Shown: positions 117-52,424 of the stretch, piece by piece
How positions within the stretch are numbered: position 1 is the first letter of the stretch
Layout of the letters: each line of letters opens with the position of its first letter
The notes under the pieces: model-generated
What the model saw: the letters and a program-made list of their open reading frames with translations, nothing else
What the model was told of the DNA's origin: nothing
Database searches by the model: none
Source of the DNA: Patescibacteria group bacterium
Lineage (GTDB): Bacteria; Patescibacteriota; Patescibacteriia; JAXHNJ01
Reading direction: 5' to 3'
Length of the DNA stretch: 64,000 bases
NCBI GenBank assembly: GCA_041649715.1
Contig: JBAZMP010000001.1
Coordinates: forward strand, 82,741-146,740
Made by a program: the position numbers and the translations under genes

Positions 117-228
117 GTCCCGCACCAAATGCCTGTGAAAATTTGCCTGGGTAGCTCAGTGGTAGAGCGAAGGACTGAAAATCCTTGCGTCGCCAGTCCG
201 ATTCTGGCCCCAGGCATTTGGTGCGGGA
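117..228. repeat. 18-bp perfect inverted repeat (tcccgcaccaaatgcctg / caggcatttggtgcggga) enclosing tRNA-Phe
   Basis: Direct reading: the left arm at 117-134 is the exact reverse complement of the right arm at 211-228. The right arm overlaps the tRNA 3' end. Confidence 0.8.
145..216 (+). tRNA. tRNA-Phe, anticodon GAA; no encoded CCA
   Basis: Acceptor gcctggg/cccaggc, D-arm agctcagtggtagagc, anticodon loop ctGAAaa, T-arm gccagtccgattctggc. Confidence 0.88.
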
Positions 229-3125: not shown

Positions 3126-3478
3126 GCGGGTATAGTATAATGGCTATTACCTGCCCGACTGCTTTGACAGCAGTCAAGGCGGGCGGGTGTCAGCTTTCTC
3201 CCGCAAAATAAGGAAGCGGAGCGACTATATTTTTCGAGGATCCCGCACGCAAAATAATAGTGTTCATTAAGCGGGCATAGTATAATGGCTATTATGTCAG
3301 CTTTCCAAGCTGAAAATACGGGTTCGATTCCCGTTGCCCGCTTAATGAGTGTTATTTTTCGGGATCCTCGCAACAAGATGGATTCACTTTGTTCATCTCA
3401 TCGTTGCGGGACAAGCTGAAAATACGGGTTCTGCGCCCGAGGCGCATCCGCCTTGGGTGGAGATTCCCGTTACCCGCT
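3126..3478 (+). tRNA. split or interrupted tRNA-Gly(TCC) gene with three insertions; either intron-containing or a pseudogene
   Basis: Exon pieces 3126-3149, 3188-3198, 3412-3431 and 3462-3478 reassemble into a tRNA-Gly that is near-identical to the intact copy. The insertions are 3150-3187 (hairpin), 3199-3411 (between anticodon nt 35 and 36, ends tcccgcaa/ttgcggga) and 3432-3461 (T-loop). Confidence 0.6.
3271..3342 (+). tRNA. tRNA-Gly, anticodon TCC, discriminator U; nested inside the 213-nt insertion of the split tRNA-Gly
   Basis: Acceptor gcgggca/tgcccgc, anticodon stem tcagc/gctga with loop ttTCCaa, 4-nt variable loop, T-arm acgggttcgattcccgt. Confidence 0.85.
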
Positions 3479-3579
3479 CCAATTTTTTTCGCTTTTAATA
3501 AGACTTGTTCTGCCGTTGGCAGGGGCCCTGCCCCAAAATTATTATTTTTAACGCCCATTAAGGCGATTTTTTTGTAAAA

Positions 3580-4275: not shown

Positions 4276-4411
4276 ATTAATATCATAGCTAAAGACAGCT
4301 TATCTGTAAATCTGGCCCATAATAATCAATAGAATCACCCATAAAATATGTCATTGTTTATTCTGCGGCCTAGATAAAGACTTACTTAAAGTATGAGTAT
4401 TAACTTGTTTT

Positions 4412-4440
4412 TTGACAATAAAAGTTATTGTCCTTATAAT
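4412..4440 (+). promoter_or_regulatory. consensus sigma70-type promoter, TTGACA-17-TATAAT
   Basis: ttgaca at 4412-4417, a 17-nt spacer, and tataat at 4435-4440. Confidence 0.65.
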
Positions 4441-4446
4441 ATAAAT

Positions 4447-4576
4447 AGTTCTTAAGAGACGCTTTTTTCCAAAGCCGGGCAAACAGGTATCGTAACAGTC
4501 GCATAATATGAGGTGGTTCCAATCCACCCTGTTAGATAGCCCGGTACCCCTGCATGTCGCATGCGGGGGTTTTCTT
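4447..4576 (+). ncRNA. candidate small RNA of about 130 nt with a T-arm-like hairpin, ending at an intrinsic terminator
   Basis: Starts just downstream of the consensus promoter. Nested helices gccgggc/gcccggt and aacagg/cctgtt surround ggtggttccaatccacc. Terminator cccctgcatg-tcg-catgcggggg plus tttt at 4547-4576. No ORF. Confidence 0.45.
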
Positions 4577-4651
4577 ATGGAGTGAAAAAGGCTAAGTATT
4601 GCCAAAAGAGAATAAAATGCTTATACTTTTGATATATTGATGGGAAAATAG

Positions 4652-4736
4652 GCCGCCGTGGTGAAATTGCCGTGAACCACTAAAGGGTTCACGGCAACCC
4701 CGCACCCTTTAGTGGTGCGGGGTGGTATACACGCAA
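4652..4736 (+). pseudogene. duplicate of tRNA-Leu(TAA) nt 1-30, interrupted in the D-loop by a 55-nt double-hairpin element
   Basis: gccgccgtggtgaaattg at 4652-4669 and gtatacacgcaa at 4725-4736 are identical to positions 1-30 of the tRNA-Leu at 5011. The insert lies at 4670-4724. Confidence 0.8.
4670..4724 (+). repeat. double-hairpin element, copy B (ccgtgaacc-ACTAAAG-ggttcacgg caa ccccgcacc-CTTTAGT-ggtgcgggg)
   Basis: Same architecture and loops as the copies at 316-369 and 52367-52421. Confidence 0.8.
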
Positions 4737-4747
4737 TAATTAATATT

Positions 4748-5005
4748 ATGCATACAGTCTATATCCTTTTACTTTCGAATAAACAATTATACACTGGAAT
4801 CACTACAAATTTAATACGAAGAATAAATGAGCATAAAGAGAGAAAAAGTCCGTTTACAAAGAATCGATTGCCCGTTAAACTGATATTTTACGAAGTGTTT
4901 AACAATAAGGAAGATGCGGAAAAGAGAGAAAGATATTTTAAAACGAGTAAGGGGAAATATTCATTAAAGGCGTTACTACGACATGCATTGAGCAAATATA
5001 ATTGA
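4748..5005 (+). CDS. GIY-YIG nuclease family protein, small UPF0213/YhbQ-like; the ORF track starts at 4712 but ATG 4748 is the likely start
   Basis: VYILLLSNKQLYTGITTNLIRRINEH matches the GIY-x10-YIG...R...E motif. The upstream extension of the tracked ORF overlaps the tRNA fragment and hairpin element. Confidence 0.7.
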   Translation: MHTVYILLLSNKQLYTGITTNLIRRINEHKERKSPFTKNRLPVKLIFYEVFNNKEDAEKRERYFKTSKGKYSLKALLRHALSKYN

Positions 5006-9252: not shown

Positions 9253-9447
9253 TATCTAATCAGTGGCTCTGCGCCGCTGAAAAAAATAAATTTATCGTCT
9301 GGAGCCGGTTTTACGAAAAAGTTCGCACCTTTTTCGTCTGACCGGTCGGCGGGCGGCCGGTGCGCGGGGGGGTCGGCCGCCCGCCCTGTCCGCGCTTTTT
9401 CTTAAAAAGCCTTCCTTTTTCGTGCCACGCTTCACGTGGCGCGCCGC
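9253..9447. repeat. inverted repeat copy A of the recombinase-associated repeat; 9297-9423 (127 bp) is 100% identical to the reverse complement of 14483-14609
   Basis: Direct comparison with the reverse complement of 14460-14705. The outer 45 nt are diverged. Contains a 12-bp all-GC hairpin, ggcgggcggccg...cggccgcccgcc, and a terminal hairpin whose stem shows compensatory changes between copies. Confidence 0.85.
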
Positions 9448-9460
9448 AACTATAACAATG

Positions 9461-10045
9461 CTATAAACAATCACTTTTACTTATAGCAAAAAAGAAAGTT
9501 TGAGTTGAGTTTTGCACTTGATAAGAATATTCCATGTTTATATCTTGGTCTAGGAGATTATTCCTTGTTTCTGGTGTTTGGCAAGCATTGGGGGCGATGA
9601 TATTTTTCAGTGACTCATTTGTAAGTTGGCTTGTGTCAATATCATGGAGTGTATAAACATAACGAATTGCATTTGGTTCTGCTAAAATATCAGTCCAAGT
9701 CGTTACCGCATCAACTTGCTGAGGAAGTGTTGATTGGGCTTTTATTTCCTGGACGGATTCCTTGATAATATCCTGTTTAGAGTCGCCCCCTAAAATAGCG
9801 GAAGTACCGTTATATACAACATAACGAGCGACTAAAAATGCCATAATAAAAACTACTATGCCTATAACAGAGCCCACAAGTGATTTAATCTTTTTACTCT
9901 TTTTTCCTGGGGTTTTTTCTGATGTTTTGGGTGTTAATTCAGATTGAACGATTTTACCGCCGCAACTCTTGCAAAATTTTGCATTATCATTATTTTCGTT
10001 ACCACAATTTTTACAATATATTTTTTTCTCTTCGGTATTAGTCAT
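9461..10045 (-). CDS. zinc-ribbon membrane protein: N-terminal CxxC-x-CxxC, one transmembrane helix, extracytoplasmic C-terminal domain
   Basis: CKNCGNENNDNAKFCKSCG followed by a hydrophobic helix. Confidence 0.45.
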   Translation of the reverse strand: MTNTEEKKIYCKNCGNENNDNAKFCKSCGGKIVQSELTPKTSEKTPGKKSKKIKSLVGSVIGIVVFIMAFLVARYVVYNGTSAILGGDSKQDIIKESVQEIKAQSTLPQQVDAVTTWTDILAEPNAIRYVYTLHDIDTSQLTNESLKNIIAPNACQTPETRNNLLDQDINMEYSYQVQNSTQTFFFAISKSDCL

Positions 10046-10226
10046 AAATTAGTAATTAAATATTATTTTATTTATTCTGCACGGCTAGGCTCCAGATAGC
10101 AAGCTTGATTTTATTAGGTAGGTTTTTAAGGGTATAGTATTTTTTGTGTACCGCTCTTGTCCCGTCGGATGACGGGATCACGGGGCGCGCCGCAATGGAT
10201 ATAAAAAATTGGTTAGGGTTTCTATG

Positions 10227-11102
10227 TTAATTCATTATATTATTATTTCGGAAAATATCAAGAAACGAGGGAGTTGCATGACCAAAAGAGTATGAAGCGT
10301 TTAGGGTTTCTATATATGCCTGTTCTTTATATATTTTTAGTAATTTTTTCCCCTCATCAGTAATTGGCACCTCTTTCTCATTGATTTTTATTACCTTATA
10401 GCCACTCACAATTGATACAAGGCGGCCAGTCCTGATATCAAAAATTGGGCCACCACTATTTCCAGGGTTGAAAGCCATTGTAAATTCATATAGGTATTTA
10501 TCTTTAGAAGTTTGATATCTACAGTTAATAACACCCTTGTCGACCCTAAGTAGTATGTTACCAATTAATGGTTTACTTAAATCATTATTGGCAAAATCCA
10601 ATTTGCACAAAGGATATCCCAAAACACCAACTTCCGACCCAATCGGTAAAAAATCTTTTGAGATTCTAACAAAATCATTTCTATCTGCTAATATTTTGTC
10701 GTCAACCTGATAGAATTCCTTATCTAAATTAAATATTGCTAAGTCAATCTCGGGGAAAATAAACAAATCTTTATTTATTTTTGGTTCATAAATTCTATAG
10801 TGCCAACTATTATCATCGTCGTGTTTTAACAAATAATATTTGTCACCATCATGGTGCTGAGACGACTCATCTTTTTGAGTATTACTAACAACATGAGCAG
10901 CGGTTAATAATTTCTCCTGTGCTGCCACAAAACCAGTCCCAAGTGTGGTCCACCTAATTACTTGTTGATCGTTAATTTTTTCACTTCTACCACGTACAAT
11001 TATATAAACTGATTTTTTTAGCCACCTCACACATTCAGAAAATGAATGAAATTTTTCTGGTCTTTTTGGGATTCTGATTTTTTTATCTTTTGACATATTC
11101 AC
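10227..11102 (-). CDS. trypsin-like (S1 family) serine protease
   Basis: Catalytic triad context TAAHVV (His), DLAIF (Asp) and GNSGGPIF (Ser). Confidence 0.7.
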   Translation of the reverse strand: MNMSKDKKIRIPKRPEKFHSFSECVRWLKKSVYIIVRGRSEKINDQQVIRWTTLGTGFVAAQEKLLTAAHVVSNTQKDESSQHHDGDKYYLLKHDDDNSWHYRIYEPKINKDLFIFPEIDLAIFNLDKEFYQVDDKILADRNDFVRISKDFLPIGSEVGVLGYPLCKLDFANNDLSKPLIGNILLRVDKGVINCRYQTSKDKYLYEFTMAFNPGNSGGPIFDIRTGRLVSIVSGYKVIKINEKEVPITDEGKKLLKIYKEQAYIETLNASYSFGHATPSFLDIFRNNNIMN

Positions 11103-11135
11103 AACTTTAAAGGTGGGTTATTAAAAATCAATAAA

Positions 11136-13067
11136 CTACCTTTGGAATTTTTTTTCAACTAAGAATTTATGAATTTTATGCCCATATTGATTAACAAGCC
11201 TATTATGTTGGACGCTCACGGCGGCTGATGCCTCACCTAAAAATGGTTCCCCACTTTCAATTTTTCTTTTAGCAATTTCACGACAAACTGCTTCAACAAC
11301 TAGTTCAGCAAGCATAACTTGGCAGTGTCCTTCTTCTTGATTTTCGCCCTGTGGGCCAAAATACATTTCTACAGACGGTGCTTTTGTCGCAATAATTACT
11401 TGGCCACTAGATTGCTCAAACCTAACCCTTTGACGAGGATCAGCAATAGGACTGAAAGTAATTTCTCTAAATAAACCAGCTTTCTTTTTATCTGTAGGTT
11501 CTGGCGTTTTTCTTTTTGAAATGACTTTTACTAATGCCTCTGCTTGCAAGTTATTTGCAATTGCAGTGATTACTCCTTCTGCACCAACTTGTTTACCAAT
11601 AACATGGATCTGTGTAGTTACAATACCGCTTTCATCAGCACCTTTCTCATTTAGTACTATTTTAGGATTTATGACAATAACATTGTTATTGTCACTATTA
11701 ATTTTTATGGTCGCTCCAGGCGGTAATTTTAGGGGAACGATTACTTTAAGAGTAAGAGTTGCTTGGCAATCGACTACTAATTGACTATAGTCAGGGACAA
11801 AATCAAATCCATTTGGAGGTGGTTCATTAATAGTACCCTCCGACCCACCTGTCCCTTCGCCTTTAGTGTCTTCTAGCTCTAATTTAGCAATTTTATTTAA
11901 TTCAGGAAGGGCTGATTGAAAACGTTTTCTTGTTTTCTCACTCTCTAATTTATTTTCACTTTCTTTAGCCAATTTTTCCTCGTCTTTAACAAATTTTTCA
12001 ACTTCCTTACTAATTATTTGGTCAAGCGCTTTTGAAAAATTATCAGTCCAGTCTATGCCTTGTCGATCTGATCTAATAATTGGCCTTTGTTCTACTCTTA
12101 ATAGATGGTCAATATAATCTACGACTGCCCTTCCGTATAATCTTACGGCGTATATATTACCTTCAAATTTTTTAGTTAGTGTAATATCAAGAACCGCGCC
12201 CTTGGATTTTACTAAAATCCCGCTTTCCCTTAGCGGCCCTTCGTCATCATAGCTACTTAGTGGTTCATCAGACCTATAGAGTTCCAGATCAATTTTTGCC
12301 GCATTATAACCCGGCACAGTAAGTTCAGTATGCTCATATAATTTCCCTTTTGGTAATATATACGATAGTTCCTCTTGCCTTTTAATTTTCTCTCTCCCAT
12401 TCTTTTCGATTAGGACTACTTCTCTCATTTTGCTGCTCATTATGTCTCGCAGACTATAATAATGCTCCAATTGCCTTTTTAAATTATCATATTGCGGAAT
12501 TCTAATTTGAGAATTTAGAGCTTTTAGAGTTATACAGGTTCCGTTACTCTCAATTCCGATATCTTTTCGCATCTGTTTTGTGACTTTACATGGTATATAG
12601 CGTTTATAGTTAAGATGTTCAAGAATGCATTTGTTATACGATTGCTCTATAACTGATTCAACGGTACCATAACCAAAAGCGATCATGGCTTCTTTTAATC
12701 CTCTGCCCCAATACCCTCTTCCAGCTTGTTCTTCCGTAAATTCACTTGTATCGCCACCATATTCAGCGACGCGCTCATCCATCTTAAACTCATTAAAACC
12801 CTCGGCATAATCGATTACTCGCACTACTGATCCTTGACGTTTTCTGATAAGTTCAATTATTATTTTTCCACTATTTTTAATATTTTTATTCTCAAGTCGT
12901 CGATAGGAGTCATCACAATTTGTGATTAACTCAATAAGTGCCAAAACCGCATTATTTTTAATTGTGGCTCTAGCTTGTTGTTCGGCAACACGTTGATGTA
13001 AGTGAATTTGTTTATTGACTGCGATGTCCATAAAATTAATTCTTAATTTTGCGTCTATGCATGCCAC
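11136..13067 (-). CDS. GHKL-superfamily (HATPase_c-like) ATPase domain protein, 643 aa, with a long uncharacterised C-terminal region
   Basis: Bergerat-fold motifs: N-box ELITNCDDS, G1-like IDYAEGF, G2 GRGYWGRGLKEA. Confidence 0.55.
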   Translation of the reverse strand: MACIDAKLRINFMDIAVNKQIHLHQRVAEQQARATIKNNAVLALIELITNCDDSYRRLENKNIKNSGKIIIELIRKRQGSVVRVIDYAEGFNEFKMDERVAEYGGDTSEFTEEQAGRGYWGRGLKEAMIAFGYGTVESVIEQSYNKCILEHLNYKRYIPCKVTKQMRKDIGIESNGTCITLKALNSQIRIPQYDNLKRQLEHYYSLRDIMSSKMREVVLIEKNGREKIKRQEELSYILPKGKLYEHTELTVPGYNAAKIDLELYRSDEPLSSYDDEGPLRESGILVKSKGAVLDITLTKKFEGNIYAVRLYGRAVVDYIDHLLRVEQRPIIRSDRQGIDWTDNFSKALDQIISKEVEKFVKDEEKLAKESENKLESEKTRKRFQSALPELNKIAKLELEDTKGEGTGGSEGTINEPPPNGFDFVPDYSQLVVDCQATLTLKVIVPLKLPPGATIKINSDNNNVIVINPKIVLNEKGADESGIVTTQIHVIGKQVGAEGVITAIANNLQAEALVKVISKRKTPEPTDKKKAGLFREITFSPIADPRQRVRFEQSSGQVIIATKAPSVEMYFGPQGENQEEGHCQVMLAELVVEAVCREIAKRKIESGEPFLGEASAAVSVQHNRLVNQYGHKIHKFLVEKKFQR

Positions 13068-13704
13068 CTACGTATTTTTTATCTAACTCCATAGGTGAGT
13101 TAAGCAGCCTGGAGAATCTCGTTTCGCACATTTTAAGAAATTCTACCAAGTCATTTCTGTTATAATCTTCGACAGCTTCAAATAATTGTTGTAAGTTTTT
13201 TCTCCTCGTTTCCGGAAGGGAATCGAGGGTACAGTATATTAAATCACAAAACTCAAATTCGGATATCTTTATTGTATTTCCAACTCTAAGATACTCTTTA
13301 TATTTACTATTTTCTTCCAGTTGTTTAACTAATCGACCACTTTTTGTCCTTCGGTCGCCTTTAATCGCAAGTAGTTTCTTTGTGTCTATTTCGTGAGCTC
13401 CAAGAACTTTACGAATCTTTTGAACGATATTTAAACCTCGGCCCGTAATTTCGAATCCCTGAGCCTTACTGCCTGTAATTAAGCCTTTGTCTGTTCTACA
13501 TCTTAACCAACATTTTTCAACCTGAGATGAATCAGGATATTTTGAAATATAACCAGGCAATCCGAATCTTTGTGGAAAAAGCTCATAACATTCAACAACA
13601 AGATTCTCAAAGTTTGTTACTTTATTCCTCTGGATTAATGAGTATAAGGCAAATACTAATAAATCATCATAAGGAATTTTATTATAAATTTTTGGGTCAA
13701 ACAT
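13036..13704 (-). CDS. hypothetical protein, 222 aa, in an operon with the GHKL ATPase
   Basis: ORF overlaps the downstream gene by about 30 nt, suggesting translational coupling. No motif recognised. Confidence 0.4.
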   Translation of the reverse strand: MFDPKIYNKIPYDDLLVFALYSLIQRNKVTNFENLVVECYELFPQRFGLPGYISKYPDSSQVEKCWLRCRTDKGLITGSKAQGFEITGRGLNIVQKIRKVLGAHEIDTKKLLAIKGDRRTKSGRLVKQLEENSKYKEYLRVGNTIKISEFEFCDLIYCTLDSLPETRRKNLQQLFEAVEDYNRNDLVEFLKMCETRFSRLLNSPMELDKKYVGGMHRRKIKN

Positions 13705-13712
13705 AATATTAT

Positions 13713-13952
13713 CTATTTAAGCTTAAATCTTTGATCTTTGGTTGTGTGGTGAAATTTTGATTTAACGTCGCGGACCATTTTTTCAATAGAATCAAAAATT
13801 TTTCGGACATCACTTTCCGTATAATCATATGCTTGACGATTCGCACAATTCCCTAAAATCATAAGTTTATTTAAAACTTCATTTGTTCTGTATTCGGCAA
13901 GTCTTTTAAATCTATCTGCTTTTGACTCGTTAATTGGGGGTTTGGGTTTCAT
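13713..13952 (-). CDS. hypothetical small basic protein, 79 aa
   Basis: Tightly spaced within the minus-strand operon. Confidence 0.35.
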   Translation of the reverse strand: MKPKPPINESKADRFKRLAEYRTNEVLNKLMILGNCANRQAYDYTESDVRKIFDSIEKMVRDVKSKFHHTTKDQRFKLK

Positions 13953-14130
13953 TGTATTTTTTTAAATCTTAAATTATTGAATTACTTATGAGTTTACTTA
14001 AAGGTTAAAAAATGGTTATATCATCTAAAAATTAGTCTAATACCATTAGTAATCATTGTCAAGATATAATATTGTGGATAACTAAAAAAGACCGAATTAA
14101 ATCGGCTAATATTAGCGAAAAAATACTATT

Positions 14131-14352
14131 CTAATTAATAAAGTAATAAATCTGCTTTTTATATATTTCGGCAAAGCGCTTTAATTCAATAATATCCACT
14201 CTTTGGTCCCCCGCCTCAACCTTTGATATATAGGATTGAGGCTCTTTAAGTTTATTGGCGACCTGTATTTGGGTTAATCCGGCCTCAATACGAGCTTTTT
14301 TTAGCTTTTGGATCAGTTTTTTATACTCTTCAAAATATATTGTGCTTGACAT
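14131..14352 (-). CDS. XRE-family helix-turn-helix transcriptional regulator
   Basis: LTQIQVANKLKEPQSYISKVEAG is a typical Cro/C1 HTH. Direct repeats ttctaattttgaatat and tcttaatttgaatat lie upstream at about 14360-14395. Confidence 0.7.
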   Translation of the reverse strand: MSSTIYFEEYKKLIQKLKKARIEAGLTQIQVANKLKEPQSYISKVEAGDQRVDIIELKRFAEIYKKQIYYFIN

Positions 14353-14459
14353 GGTTATATGATATATTCAAATTAAGAATATTCAAAATTAGAATATTAC
14401 AAAAGGGGAGTAAAGACGTGCGTATGGGTGGGCGGGGCAAACGTTAAGAGGTTTAAAAG

Positions 14460-14705
14460 CGGCGCATCTCCCGAAGGGAGATACGAAAAAGGAAGGCTTT
14501 TTAAGAAAAAGCGCGGACAGGGCGGGCGGCCGACCCCCCCCGCGCACCGGCCGCCCGCCGACCGGTCAGACGAAAAAGGTGCGAACTTTTTCGTAAAACC
14601 GGCTCCAGTTCGTAAATTGCGATTTTTTTGTGGCGAATAACCACTGATTAGATAATAAAATTAGGGCTTTTTGCCCGAAGACTTGGAAGTTCGACACCCG
14701 CGACG
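14460..14705. repeat. inverted repeat copy B: inverted relative to both copy A (9253-9447) and copy C (16139-16229)
   Basis: Reverse complement of 14483-14609 equals 9297-9423. Reverse complement of 14609-14705 equals 16139-16229 over about 92 bp. Confidence 0.85.
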
Positions 14706-14773
14706 ACGGGGGGCTCCGCCGGAGGCGGAGCAGCCAATTTTTCTAAGTTTAAATAAAAGCGAAAGCGACAACT

Positions 14774-16237
14774 ATGAAATATTTAATTTACGCCAGAAAA
14801 TCAACGGACGAGGACGACCGGCAAGTATTGTCCATAGAATCGCAAATAACAGAATTAAGAGAATTTGCCGTCAAGGAAAATTTAGAAATTATTGATGAAT
14901 ACATAGAAAGCAAGACGGCCAAAGCGCCCGGTCGTCCTCTTTTTAATAAAATGATAGAACGAATTGAAAAAAACGGTCCCATGGGAATTTTGGCGTGGCA
15001 TCCCGACCGATTGGCGAGAAACAGCATTGACGGAGGGAAAATTATTTATTTGGTTGATACCGGCAAAATCGGCGGTTTAAAGTTTCCCACTTTTTGGTTT
15101 GATGCCACGCCGCAGGGAAAATTCATGCTTAATATCGCTTTCGGCCAGAGCAAATACTATATTGATAACTTGTGTGAAAACATCAAGCGCGGCATACGCC
15201 AGAAATTAAGAAGAGGCGAATGGCCAGGGCTCGCGCCATTAGGGTATCTCAACGAATTGCGCCACCATACAATTATTAAAGACCCCGAGCGTTGGCCCAT
15301 AGTCAAAAAACTCTTTGAGGCGTATGCCGCGGGCAATCATACTTTGGAAAGTTTAAAACAGTTGTCGCTTTCGCTGGGCTTGGTGAGCCGAAGGTCCGGA
15401 AAACCGATAGTCATCACGATACTTTCGGATATGCTGACCAATCCGTTTTATTACGGCGTATTCGAGCACAGCGGTGAAATGCACCAGGGGACGCACGAGC
15501 CGATCATTACCAAACGGCTTTTTGACGCCGTTCAAAAAATCCATAATACCAAGCGCAAGACAAGAGTAAGAAAAGAGCTGATTCCTTTCGCTTTCCGAGG
15601 CGTATTTACCTGCGGCGAGTGCGGCCGAATGATTACGGCGGAAAGAAAGAAAAAGCCGTCAGGATTGAAATATATTTATTACCGCTGTACGAAAAAGAAT
15701 GTTGTTTGTTCCCAGAAATTCCTGGAAGAAAGGCGATTGGTCAGCCAGATTAATAAAACTATTGCGAGCGTCGCCCTTCCCGAAGATTGGAAAGACAAGA
15801 TGATAAAAAGGGTTGACGAAGAGATAAAGCAAGCTAAAACCAAACATCAAGGCGAGATTGTAGTGTTAAAAAATGAGCAAGCTAAGTTAGAATCAAAGCT
15901 TTTGCGACTGCTTGACGAACGGCTTGATCAGGCAATTTCCAAGCAGATTTTTTCCCAAGCAAAACAAAAAATCGTCAACCGGCAGGTTGAGATTAAAGAA
16001 TTGTTGGATGGGTTTAAACGGAAGGGCGACGCTCGGCTCGAACTCTTTAAAGAGTGGATTTTAGAGGCTCACCAAGCCCCTTTTATCGCAAAGCAGGAAA
16101 ATTTAGAAGTTAAGAGAAATTATATACAAAAAATTGGCTCGAACTTCCAAGTCTTCGGGCAAAAAGCCCTAATTTTATTATCTAATCAGTGGTTATTCGC
16201 CACAAAAAAATCGCAATTTACGAACTGGAGCGGGTGA
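14774..16237 (+). CDS. large serine recombinase (resolvase/integrase family with recombinase domain, zinc ribbon and coiled coil)
   Basis: N-terminal YARKSTDEDDRQVLSIESQ with the catalytic Ser-containing motif; recombinase domain. C-terminal Cys cluster CGECG...YYRC. The last roughly 30 codons lie inside repeat copy C. Confidence 0.75.
   Translation: MKYLIYARKSTDEDDRQVLSIESQITELREFAVKENLEIIDEYIESKTAKAPGRPLFNKMIERIEKNGPMGILAWHPDRLARNSIDGGKIIYLVDTGKIGGLKFPTFWFDATPQGKFMLNIAFGQSKYYIDNLCENIKRGIRQKLRRGEWPGLAPLGYLNELRHHTIIKDPERWPIVKKLFEAYAAGNHTLESLKQLSLSLGLVSRRSGKPIVITILSDMLTNPFYYGVFEHSGEMHQGTHEPIITKRLFDAVQKIHNTKRKTRVRKELIPFAFRGVFTCGECGRMITAERKKKPSGLKYIYYRCTKKNVVCSQKFLEERRLVSQINKTIASVALPEDWKDKMIKRVDEEIKQAKTKHQGEIVVLKNEQAKLESKLLRLLDERLDQAISKQIFSQAKQKIVNRQVEIKELLDGFKRKGDARLELFKEWILEAHQAPFIAKQENLEVKRNYIQKIGSNFQVFGQKALILLSNQWLFATKKSQFTNWSG
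16139..16229. repeat. inverted repeat copy C: a 92-bp perfect inverted partner of 14609-14705, ending at the CCA end of tRNA-Gly(GCC)
   Basis: Direct comparison. The repeat stops at ctggagc, overlapping the tRNA 3' terminus. Confidence 0.85.
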
Positions 16238-16419: not shown

Positions 16420-16478
16420 AAAGTTCATTTTCGAAGACCACTTTCCGCCCAAGGCGGACCCGCCTCTGGCGGGGGCTA
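16420..16478 (-). pseudogene. tRNA-Cys-like fragment: ttcgaa, then GC hairpins, then a 12-nt copy of the tRNA-Cys 5' end (ggctacgtgacc)
   Basis: ggctacgtgacc at 16467-16478 duplicates 16373-16384. The preceding ccgcccaaggcgg and cccgcctctggcggg hairpins replace the tRNA body. Confidence 0.45.
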
Positions 16479-16531
16479 CGTGACCGAAACGGTATTTAAT
16501 ATTCTAGCAAATTCCTTAGAATTTACAAGGC

Positions 16532-52234: not shown

Positions 52235-52347
52235 ATTATTATTTGCACCCTTCCTTTTGATTAATTAATTGATAATTACACTTGAAAATAATTTTAAAAA
52301 AAATGCCTGGTAGGCGGGAATAATATTTAATTTTTAATAAAATTATG

Positions 52348-52424
52348 GTGAGCGTAGAGGGATTCGCCTTGAACTACTGAAGAGTTCACGGCTGCCCCGA
52401 ACCCTTTAGTGGTTTGGGGCGAAC
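52348..52424 (-). pseudogene. tRNA-Lys 3' fragment (copy of the acceptor 3' strand and T-arm) interrupted in the T-loop by a 55-nt double-hairpin element
   Basis: gtgagcgtagagggattcg at 52348-52366 plus aac at 52422-52424 match gtgagcgcagagggattcgaac of the intact gene at 52466-52487. The insert lies at 52367-52421. Confidence 0.75.
52367..52421 (+). repeat. double-hairpin element, copy C (ccttgaact-ACTGAAG-agttcacgg ct gccccgaacc-CTTTAGT-ggtttggggc)
   Basis: The loop 1 A-to-G change still pairs with loop 2 through G:U. The stem 2 changes are compensatory. Confidence 0.8.

Follow-up and report, generated by a model that had tools for sequence, protein, structure and literature searches.

In fungal mitochondria, free-standing GIY-YIG genes are known to duplicate the ends of the genes that they invade. 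The double-hairpin elements (DHEs) of mitochondria reportedly, in the work of Paquin et al. from 2000, have conserved loops and variable stems. DHEs of Allomyces, other chytrids and Schizosaccharomyces are short, G+C-rich, composed of two stem-loops and thought to be mobile (PMC10085805), and for yeast mitochondrial GC clusters a short target duplication together with help from resident endonucleases has been proposed (PMC4478555). Elements likewise of this build are described here from a 64,000-nt stretch of Patescibacteria DNA (contig JBAZMP010000001.1, positions 82,741 to 146,740; hereafter the window, to whose numbering all positions refer unless a locus handle is given), which is part of a 221-kb metagenome contig with bacterial housekeeping genes; three DHE copies interrupt displaced pieces of tRNA genes, and one of them stands beside a stand-alone GIY-YIG nuclease open reading frame (ORF). 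The descriptive core of the analysis, namely DNA-level insertion with a 2-bp duplication at tRNA loop positions within redundant gene pieces and a tight association with the GIY-YIG gene, is well supported. As a tentative but plausible reading, we propose that the hairpin module acts together with the minimal GIY-YIG nuclease in a cassette that invades tRNA genes, the copies without ORF being its satellites.

Judged by comparison with published descriptions, the nearest systems would be mitochondrial DHEs and GC clusters by architecture, REP/REPIN-RAYT by logic in bacteria, and T4 segB-type genes by gene. The likeness to mitochondrial DHEs is one of architecture as described and not of shared ancestry: adjacent stem-loops with conserved loops and compensated variable stems are found here too, but on a bacterial chromosome rather than in an organelle, and the targets are loop positions of tRNA fragments. 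Allomyces DHEs have moreover been reported without flanking duplications, with an RNA route suggested (PMC2800124), whereas the Patescibacteria family has a clear 2-bp duplication. With REP, BIME and REPIN-RAYT systems it shares an inverted pair of palindromic hairpin units, which is non-coding and multi-copy with compensated stems, and a small nuclease gene beside a repeat copy. It differs in that this neighbor encodes a GIY-YIG and not a Y1 HUH enzyme (no Y1_Tnp in the Pfam lists of the window and its flanks), in the 2-bp duplication, in having no GTAG-type conserved head, in targeting tRNA-gene loops instead of general extragenic space, and in an apparently low copy number of three in 64 kb. 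Correia and IS630-type MITEs (miniature inverted-repeat transposable elements; 2-bp TA) and the Rickettsia palindromic elements, which insert in genes and RNA genes, are also small, palindromic, non-autonomous and flanked by a short duplication; compared with Correia/IS630 MITEs, the present target is YG and not TA, and two separate hairpins with conserved loops stand where those MITEs have terminal inverted repeats enclosing a core. For the DHE family, no IS630-type partner was seen.

T4 segB, a free-standing GIY-YIG gene in a tRNA gene cluster, shares with the gene beside the element its domain, its tRNA-gene location and, if the enzyme acts as proposed below, 2-nt 3' overhangs (PMC2330249). 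The gene analyzed here differs in abutting the 5' end of a tRNA and following a double hairpin, in that this tRNA gene is partly duplicated and shows no intron or polymorphism difference, and in that the element is absent from the viral, phage and plasmid collections searched. I-TevI and Seg proteins carry DNA-binding domains, unlike the 83-93-aa protein found here, which consists of the catalytic domain only. The attL/attR fragments produced by integrases of phages and integrative elements likewise place a partial tRNA beside an intact one, with breaks in the T, anticodon or D arm (PMC9897764), but here the two lie 8-300 nt apart and not kilobases, the gaps hold nothing or only the GIY-YIG ORF and no integrase, and the fragment itself is interrupted by a hairpin. 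If the partnership of nuclease and hairpins is real, the family could exceed a variant of known elements.

The three DHE copies and the tRNA genes and fragments around them are as follows.

144-217, + strand: intact tRNA-Phe(GAA); source or partner of the Phe fragment, with copy 1 lying 96 nt downstream
304-386, + strand: displaced tRNA-Phe 3' piece, tRNA positions 46-57 and 56-74 split by copy 1; one G-to-A difference from the intact gene
316-367, no strand: DHE copy 1, core of 52 bp, with CG flanks at 314-315 and 368-369; model score 77 bits on both strands
4652-4736, + strand: displaced tRNA-Leu(TAA) 5' piece, tRNA positions 1-18 (18/18 identical to the intact gene) and 17-30, D loop split by copy 2
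4670-4722, no strand: DHE copy 2, core of 53 bp, with TG flanks at 4668-4669 and 4723-4724; model score 84.5 bits
5011-5097, + strand: intact tRNA-Leu(TAA), 287 nt from the Leu fragment
52346-52424, - strand: displaced tRNA-Lys(CTT) 3' piece, T loop to 3' end plus CCA; one G-to-A difference
52367-52419, no strand: DHE copy 3, core of 53 bp, with CG flanks at 52365-52366 and 52420-52421; model score 73.6 bits
52464-52538, - strand: intact tRNA-Lys(CTT), 42 nt from the Lys fragment

A reading made from the DNA letters without database searches (the sequence-only reading) had reported the copies at 316-369, 4670-4724 and 52367-52421, and direct inspection, a pattern scan and a covariance model all recovered them there. 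The 20-nt pattern of hairpin 1, with a chance expectation in the window of 0.00, matches exactly three times, and the covariance model built from 54 distinct members finds exactly the same three on the 64 kb (72-85 bits, the next match scoring 9 bits). Folded as RNA or as DNA, each copy forms two adjacent hairpins (z = -4.7 to -8.7 versus shuffled sequence). Comparison with the intact neighboring genes confirmed that all three lie inside tRNA-gene fragments (Phe, Leu and Lys) and that each insertion point can be fixed to the nucleotide, at T loop positions 56-57 for copies 1 and 3 and at D loop positions 17-18 for copy 2, copy 3 having just 5 nt of tRNA sequence to its inner side. Twelve tRNA genes were identified in the window with ARAGORN and Rfam; since tRNA genes and fragments together cover <2% of it, the placement of three out of three copies in such fragments is not due to chance. 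The TG repeat suspected at copy 2 is present, although it is not confined to that copy, as CG repeats flank copies 1 and 3. Hairpin 1, described there as conserved, also varies in the wider family, and the stems are not always perfectly compensated, one stem of copy 3 containing a T.C mismatch and a G:T pair. What the same reading missed is the tight link to the GIY-YIG ORF and the fact that the fragments copy the neighboring tRNA.

Scanning with one degenerate pattern spanning both loops yielded 30 loci in species-representative genomes, nearly all of them Patescibacteria, Parcubacteria or Saccharibacteria metagenome-assembled genomes, and 57 loci in metagenomes; a phage or plasmid origin was rejected for lack of pattern matches in viral contigs and of blastn matches to the element in phage and plasmid collections. 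Matches in Kocuria/Actinomycetes and Clostridia (L004, L007, L008, L022, L025 and L030) were set aside as unrelated or single-unit. Including the window, the collection amounts to 94 copies at 78 loci with 67 distinct sequences, almost all from Patescibacteria. The unit consists of two inverted hairpins with stems of 10-11 bp and 7-nt loops (ACTAAAG and CTTTAGT), and the alignment of the 54 distinct copies shows no variation in the loops or in the three base pairs nearest to them. The stems covary: 97.5% of stem cells are paired versus 77% in shuffles, 16 of 20 pairs change on both sides, and none of 500 shuffles matched the observed values. The covariance model also detects diverged relatives with other loops at other loci. 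The proposal of a family of small insertions is borne out by the delimitable 2-bp duplication and by the occurrence of many copies at different tRNA genes in many genomes: the units are small, non-coding and multi-copy (94 copies), and they occupy unrelated sites (~65) with presence/absence differences. No description of the family was found in literature on GIY-YIG/tRNA/Patescibacteria, UPF0213/YhbQ, palindromes in tRNA fragments or MITEs of the Candidate Phyla Radiation.

At 18 of 23 distinct junctions compared with the intact tRNA, the two flanks share exactly 2 bp, leaving an insert of 52-53 bp, and this is the short target duplication of fixed length expected of a MITE. The CG target corresponds to C56 and G57 of the T loop or to a CCG anticodon loop, and the TG target to positions 17-18 in the D loop of class II tRNA-Leu, while T loops reading TTCAAAT bear CAA-ended elements (L075 and L083). 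The flanking nucleotides prolong both stems, and their complement forms the element center. Approximately 40 of the 65 distinct sites are in tRNA fragments (22 at T loop CG, 3 at T loop CAA, 14 in the D loop and one in the anticodon loop); the site of L013 is linked to a tRNA-Leu and a GIY-YIG ORF, with flanks that are not tRNA-like. The targeting of tRNA genes stated by the sequence-only reading holds for the CG- and TG-ended subfamilies, for which every site found is a tRNA-gene fragment, but not for about 24 of the 65 sites. Non-tRNA copies with TTG or CAA ends (L011, L021, L034, L041, L052-L054 and L086) sit in a longer AT-rich repeat (aaattctaaacaaaatt...), and some of them carry a third hairpin inserted in one arm; in the lineage with these copies, the unit may form part of a larger repeat.

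The geometry of these junctions is also what a recombination scar might leave, that is, an att-type or hairpin-type site deposited by small integrating circles, with the 2-bp repeat serving as crossover dinucleotide in the manner of serine recombinases. Integrases classically cross over in the T, anticodon and D arms of tRNA genes, the inserts sit exactly at loop centers, where TTCGAA and CTCCGGAG are palindromes centered on CG, the same dinucleotide flanks both ends and its complement stands at the center, the fragments mimic attL/attR in their arrangement, and a large serine recombinase gene is present in the window (14774-16237). That gene, however, belongs to a separate 7-kb element at tRNA-Gly(GCC); stems that vary around conserved loops are the opposite of a site made of binding arms plus spacer; the TG sites are not palindromic; and only 8-100 nt or just the GIY-YIG ORF separate the intact tRNA from the fragment, without an element body. 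Such a scar is in our estimation very improbable.

Hairpin 1 and the hairpin-2 unit are reverse complements, which gives the element as a whole dyad symmetry and leaves it without an orientation, and the complementarity of its loops follows from the two hairpins being inverted copies of one unit. Among 1206 stem pairs, 39 G:T and 35 A:C mismatches were counted, thus no excess of wobble pairs, which speaks against RNA because a selected RNA would tolerate G:T and not A:C. Covariance model scores are equal on both strands, and among 54 elements eight have one changed loop and none has a compensated change. Together these results demonstrate that the constraint acts on the DNA palindrome, not on RNA, and neither the selection at RNA level nor the loop-loop pairing preserved through G:U that the sequence-only reading had put forward survives them; loop-loop kissing was rejected for want of any compensated loop pair. 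Its suggestion of a mini-intron fared no better: when the 94 copies were excised in silico over a range of end offsets and the products examined with ARAGORN, a tRNA was restored in one case only (L084), and the hosts are truncated gene pieces instead of otherwise complete genes. Rfam searches at the gathering threshold over the window, and at an E-value threshold over 4380-4760, returned only tRNAs and chance matches, with no intron family over the window and no match to the element, and a known RNA family was accordingly rejected.

An RNA-level function in cis has been weighed against the same data. The element might act as a processing signal, as a 5' stabilizer of the GIY-YIG mRNA, as an insulator against pairing between fragment and tRNA or, as originally suggested, as a spliced mini-intron; it is probably part of the 5' leader in a transcript of fragment, ORF and tRNA, its hairpins are very stable as RNA, and their integrity has been kept by compensated changes between the diverged orthologous cassettes of the window and L014. 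Besides the wobble, strand, loop and excision results, many copies are located downstream of tRNAs or in non-tRNA DNA without an ORF, and a 2-bp target duplication is a DNA-level signature, which makes this explanation very improbable indeed. Both the recombination scar and the RNA function fit the evidence poorly.

The interrupted fragments are copies of the adjacent tRNA gene. Their 5' pieces are situated upstream and their 3' pieces downstream of the intact tRNA, they match the adjacent gene including its genome-specific acceptor stem, and 5' pieces are identical to it over 18/18 positions, with 3' pieces usually differing at one position. In L066, L014 and L103 the filler between gene and fragment starts with a copy of the tRNA's own downstream flank and therefore points to local tandem duplication. 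Over all loci, 44 of 69 tRNA fragments carry a DHE of the present family (A-type) and most of the others have either a degenerate copy or another family's double hairpin, so that ~56 of 69 carry some double hairpin. Formation of fragment and hairpin in a single event, by break repair with over-replication, was also considered; it fits the fillers of L066, L014 and L103 and leaves the turnover of the hairpins unexplained. Hairpin inserts of other families were found in the window at three positions.

3150-3187, no strand: hairpin insert of 38 bp at position 26/27 of a displaced tRNA-Gly(TCC) 5' piece (3126-3198)
3432-3461, no strand: mini double hairpin of 30 bp, TGCGCC-CGA-GGCGCA / TCCGCC-TTG-GGTGGA
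16444-16473, no strand: a further mini double hairpin; interrupts the D loop of the displaced tRNA-Cys 5' piece (16436-16485, - strand)

The insert at 3432-3461 occupies T loop position 56/57 of the displaced tRNA-Gly(TCC) 3' piece without a duplication and shows the same behavior in a different family, and that at 16444-16473 is 52 nt upstream of the intact tRNA-Cys. In the region of L014 orthologous to 3432-3461, a mini double hairpin and an A-type DHE are both present, and the L014 fragment matching 3126-3198 carries a different double hairpin 2 nt away from the insert site of the window.

At the tRNA-Gly(TCC) locus (3126-3481), a 213-nt segment (3199-3411) with 8-nt inverted ends (TCCCGCAA / TTGCGGGA), which holds the present intact tRNA-Gly (3270-3343), seems to divide an old gene at the anticodon (35/36). 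The old halves pair together (GCGGGTA / TACCCGC) and show a compensated base-pair difference from the new gene (GCGGGCA / TGCCCGC); the same nested arrangement occurs in L014. Directly upstream of the Phe fragment, a further hairpin (281-305; CCCCGCAC-(18 nt)-GTGCGGGG) gives a weak model match of 9 bits, and its stem is that of hairpin 2 of copy 2 with an unrelated loop, so that it may be a decayed unit; the homologous filler of L103 is without its 5' arm.

Next to copy 2, the following features separate the Leu fragment from the intact tRNA-Leu or precede the fragment.

4599-4627, + strand: promoter-like site, TTGCCA-17-TATACT, upstream of the Leu fragment
4748-5005, + strand: stand-alone GIY-YIG nuclease ORF, 85 aa, Pfam PF01541, E = 2e-15

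The ORF begins 25 nt past the core of copy 2, its stop codon is 5 nt ahead of the intact tRNA-Leu, and its product is a bare GIY-YIG domain, UPF0213-like among PDB structures. It is absent from the genes called on the source contig, and short ORFs beside tRNAs may be under-annotated. Its homologues form 40 clusters, all from Patescibacteria, and five residues corresponding to catalytic-type positions (Y5, Y15, R25, H29 and E61) are invariant in 25 sequences, as would suit the catalytic domain of a homing cassette. Because no comparable promoter-like site was found between the Leu fragment and the intact tRNA-Leu, the Leu fragment, DHE, ORF and tRNA are probably co-transcribed as one unit, as far as promoter motifs in the DNA can tell.

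This arrangement is recurrent. The pattern-found loci contain 17 GIY-YIG ORFs: for 14 the start is 17-47 nt from an A-type DHE, and for two others the preceding element is a double hairpin that is of the mini type or has a mutated loop; the stop codon of 11 of the 17 is 0-10 nt before position 1 of an intact tRNA. The order is a tRNA part up to the loop, the double hairpin, 5-12 nt, an ORF of 83-93 aa and the intact tRNA. Four distinct loci picked through the protein instead of the DNA pattern, at tRNA-Leu(CAA), tRNA-Leu(TAA) and tRNA-Met, have the same order with 5-7 nt between hairpin and ORF, and their hairpin families have no loop sequence in common with the present one. ORF subfamilies track both tRNA type and hairpin family, with groups for Leu, for Arg (T or anticodon loop) and for Val/Gly with mini hairpins. 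The Pfam lists for ~78 kb of the source contig contain no transposase, reverse transcriptase or Y1 enzyme, and the sole recombinase of the window is the large serine recombinase of the separate ~7-kb element; hence the GIY-YIG gene is the only enzyme gene found beside the elements. It is the sole linked gene and stands beside the hairpin pair, not between the hairpins. By the same Pfam lists, the possibility that the DHEs are part of a larger insertion sequence was dismissed.

Under the cassette reading, a mobile palindromic DNA module would insert with a 2-bp duplication at YG in loop-coding parts of tRNA genes, and the double hairpin would be the non-coding partner of the 83-93-aa GIY-YIG gene. 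The cassette would consist of the old tRNA part up to the loop, the double hairpin, 5-12 nt of tRNA sequence, the ORF and a complete tRNA, and would be transcribed from the tRNA's own promoter. Since the interrupted part is present a second time, the interrupted gene would stay functional, and the displaced, dispensable copy is consequently the only place where the hairpin module is found; insertions that hit the sole functional copy of a tRNA would also occur and then be purged. The enzyme may make a 2-nt staggered cut and mobilize or recognize the hairpins, and the 2-nt 3' overhangs ascribed to GIY-YIG homing enzymes in the SegB paper (PMC2330249) would fit the 2-bp duplication. ORF-less copies, such as copies 1 and 3, would be non-autonomous or decayed derivatives that turn over, move between paralogous tRNA loci, amplify into arrays and are lost precisely. 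That the minimal 85-aa GIY-YIG nuclease and the double hairpin constitute a previously unrecognized class of autonomous bacterial mobile element, in which hairpin- or cloverleaf-forming DNA is recognized through its structure, tRNA genes are cut in their loops with a 2-nt stagger and the essential gene is regenerated by duplicating or carrying the interrupted part, is a more doubtful extension, which we consider unlikely. On that extension it would be a natural way of invading tRNA genes while rescuing them ("invade and rescue"), and no GIY-YIG-based system of transposition or homing with MITE-like satellites of its own would have preceded it.

Several signs of such turnover were observed. An identical 10-nt arm is shared in 17 of 28 within-genome copy pairs versus 21 of 378 between-genome pairs, and tandem arrays of units with periods of 88-123 nt occur in L045, L066, L067 and L079. 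In L020, a fragment of one tRNA-Leu with its DHE is located upstream of a different tRNA-Leu, a foreign fragment compatible with the spread of free-standing homing genes by co-conversion of flanks. A mini hairpin and an A-type hairpin make up a chimeric pair in L033, from which it follows that the hairpins are modular, and the ORF-less spacer of L012 retains a remnant of the ORF cassette present in L010. At the Phe locus, the window has an A-type element at 57/58 with a CG duplication, L103 has a mini double hairpin at 56/57 without duplication in a homologous fragment with homologous filler, and L102 has neither fragment nor hairpin, precisely lacking the unit seen in L103, so the whole unit can evidently be lost precisely. 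The check for presence/absence differences in relatives, recommended by the sequence-only reading, yielded these two loci, found through the protein neighboring copy 1, one with a hairpin of another family in the homologous fragment and one lacking the fragment altogether; none of these relatives has the fragment without a hairpin. The Gly 3' fragments of the window and L014 differ in hairpin family just as the Phe fragments of the window and L103 do.

Turnover of this kind favors a rival in which the DHE is an independent MITE, moved by an unlinked transposase or recombinase recognizing tRNA loops such as TTCGA and persisting only in dispensable fragments, so that its apparent preference for them would reflect survivorship, with GIY-YIG as a separate selfish gene homing into the interval between DHE and tRNA and with the fragments produced by other processes (integrases, homing endonuclease genes, or DNA uptake followed by illegitimate recombination). 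Fragments arising from element integration are in fact a known and common phenomenon (PMC9897764), and a number of observations tell against the cassette reading or for this rival. Different hairpin families in the same inherited fragment of related genomes imply that hairpin insertion is separable from fragment formation, and old split genes bear several independent hairpin inserts, as at tRNA-Gly 3126-3480; mini double hairpins lack the target duplication. Most copies, including two of the three in the window (copies 1 and 3), have no ORF nearby. The sites outside tRNA genes, 24 of ~65, lie in AT-rich DNA with TTG, CAA or TAA ends, mostly in one lineage and sometimes nested, and no GIY-YIG gene is found in the DNA retrieved around them. 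The GIY-YIG protein is the catalytic domain only, without a recognizable DNA-binding domain, and the intact tRNA keeps the same loop sequence, so that a homing model leaves immunity unexplained. Finally, the loci were ascertained through the element pattern, mostly in 8-kb pieces of metagenome assemblies, and their numbers are not genome-wide counts.

Against an independent MITE, no candidate transposase occurs in the 78 kb of source contig inspected, and the ~56 of 69 fragments with a double hairpin would require insertion at a very high rate. In all cases examined, covering five independent tRNA/loop contexts, hairpin and ORF are separated by a narrow distance (5-12 nt of tRNA plus a short leader), and GIY-YIG subfamily, hairpin family and tRNA type co-vary. 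Fixed hairpin-ORF geometry, the co-variation of ORF and hairpin family and the absence of another enzyme favor the partnership, turnover the independent MITE, which we regard as rather unlikely and nonetheless as the main competitor.

The genomes of Patescibacteria are very small and hold their tRNA genes in single copy, yet hairpin-bearing partial copies litter the tRNA loci. If the cassette reading is true, it would show how a selfish element can exist within RNA genes that are essential and present only once, with no intron involved, and a recurrent source of tRNA pseudo-fragments and local tandem arrays in Patescibacteria would be explained. It would also give the widespread stand-alone GIY-YIG (UPF0213-like) proteins a testable function; it may also offer a very small structure- or site-directed nuclease. 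For annotation, the fragments may be mistaken for tRNA genes or introns.

Other features of the window and of related loci are recorded here. The conserved loop plus neck CACTAAAGGG, found at 322-334, at 4676-4688 and, for the second hairpins, on the complementary strand, matches exactly the core 10-mer of the T3 phage RNA polymerase promoter; a promoter role seems unlikely, since the two copies in each element face each other. Downstream of a perfect sigma-70-type promoter (4412-4440, TTGACA-17-TATAAT), ~130 nt lead to a strong terminator hairpin (4546-4570), and the unit 4412-4577 is conserved in L014, belongs to no Rfam family and is possibly an unannotated small RNA. A stretch of ~7 kb (9253-16235) is bracketed by long inverted and direct repeats (9253-9447, 14459-14694 and 16139-16235); the serine recombinase gene (14774-16237) ends it and overlaps the 3' end of tRNA-Gly(GCC), and the whole is probably a separate integrated element. 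Acceptor stems are extended by complementary leader and trailer sequences of 8-13 bp at three places (119-131 with 217-229, 1-8 with 90-97, and 3237-3247 with 3360-3370), the example at tRNA-Phe being TCCCGCACCAAAT ... ATTTGGTGCGGGA, with similar CCCGCA-type motifs in L028 and L102.

Approximately 9.3 kb upstream of the window, on the same contig (L001, 145-317), are two tandem tRNAs with the amber-reading anticodon CTA, labeled tRNA-Pyl by ARAGORN. In L102 (448-739) and L103 (1-301), tRNA-Phe(GAA) has a ~230-nt intron-like insert in the anticodon loop and is not called as a gene by ARAGORN; group I introns have been reported in Patescibacteria tRNA genes, and the position of the insert fits. 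The tRNA-Phe of the window is without this insert, which looks quite unlike the DHE. The T loop GTCCGATTC of tRNA-Phe (window 144-217, L102 and L103) has a C at position 55, where U is, to our knowledge, almost universal, and this C is shared by the fragment copies.

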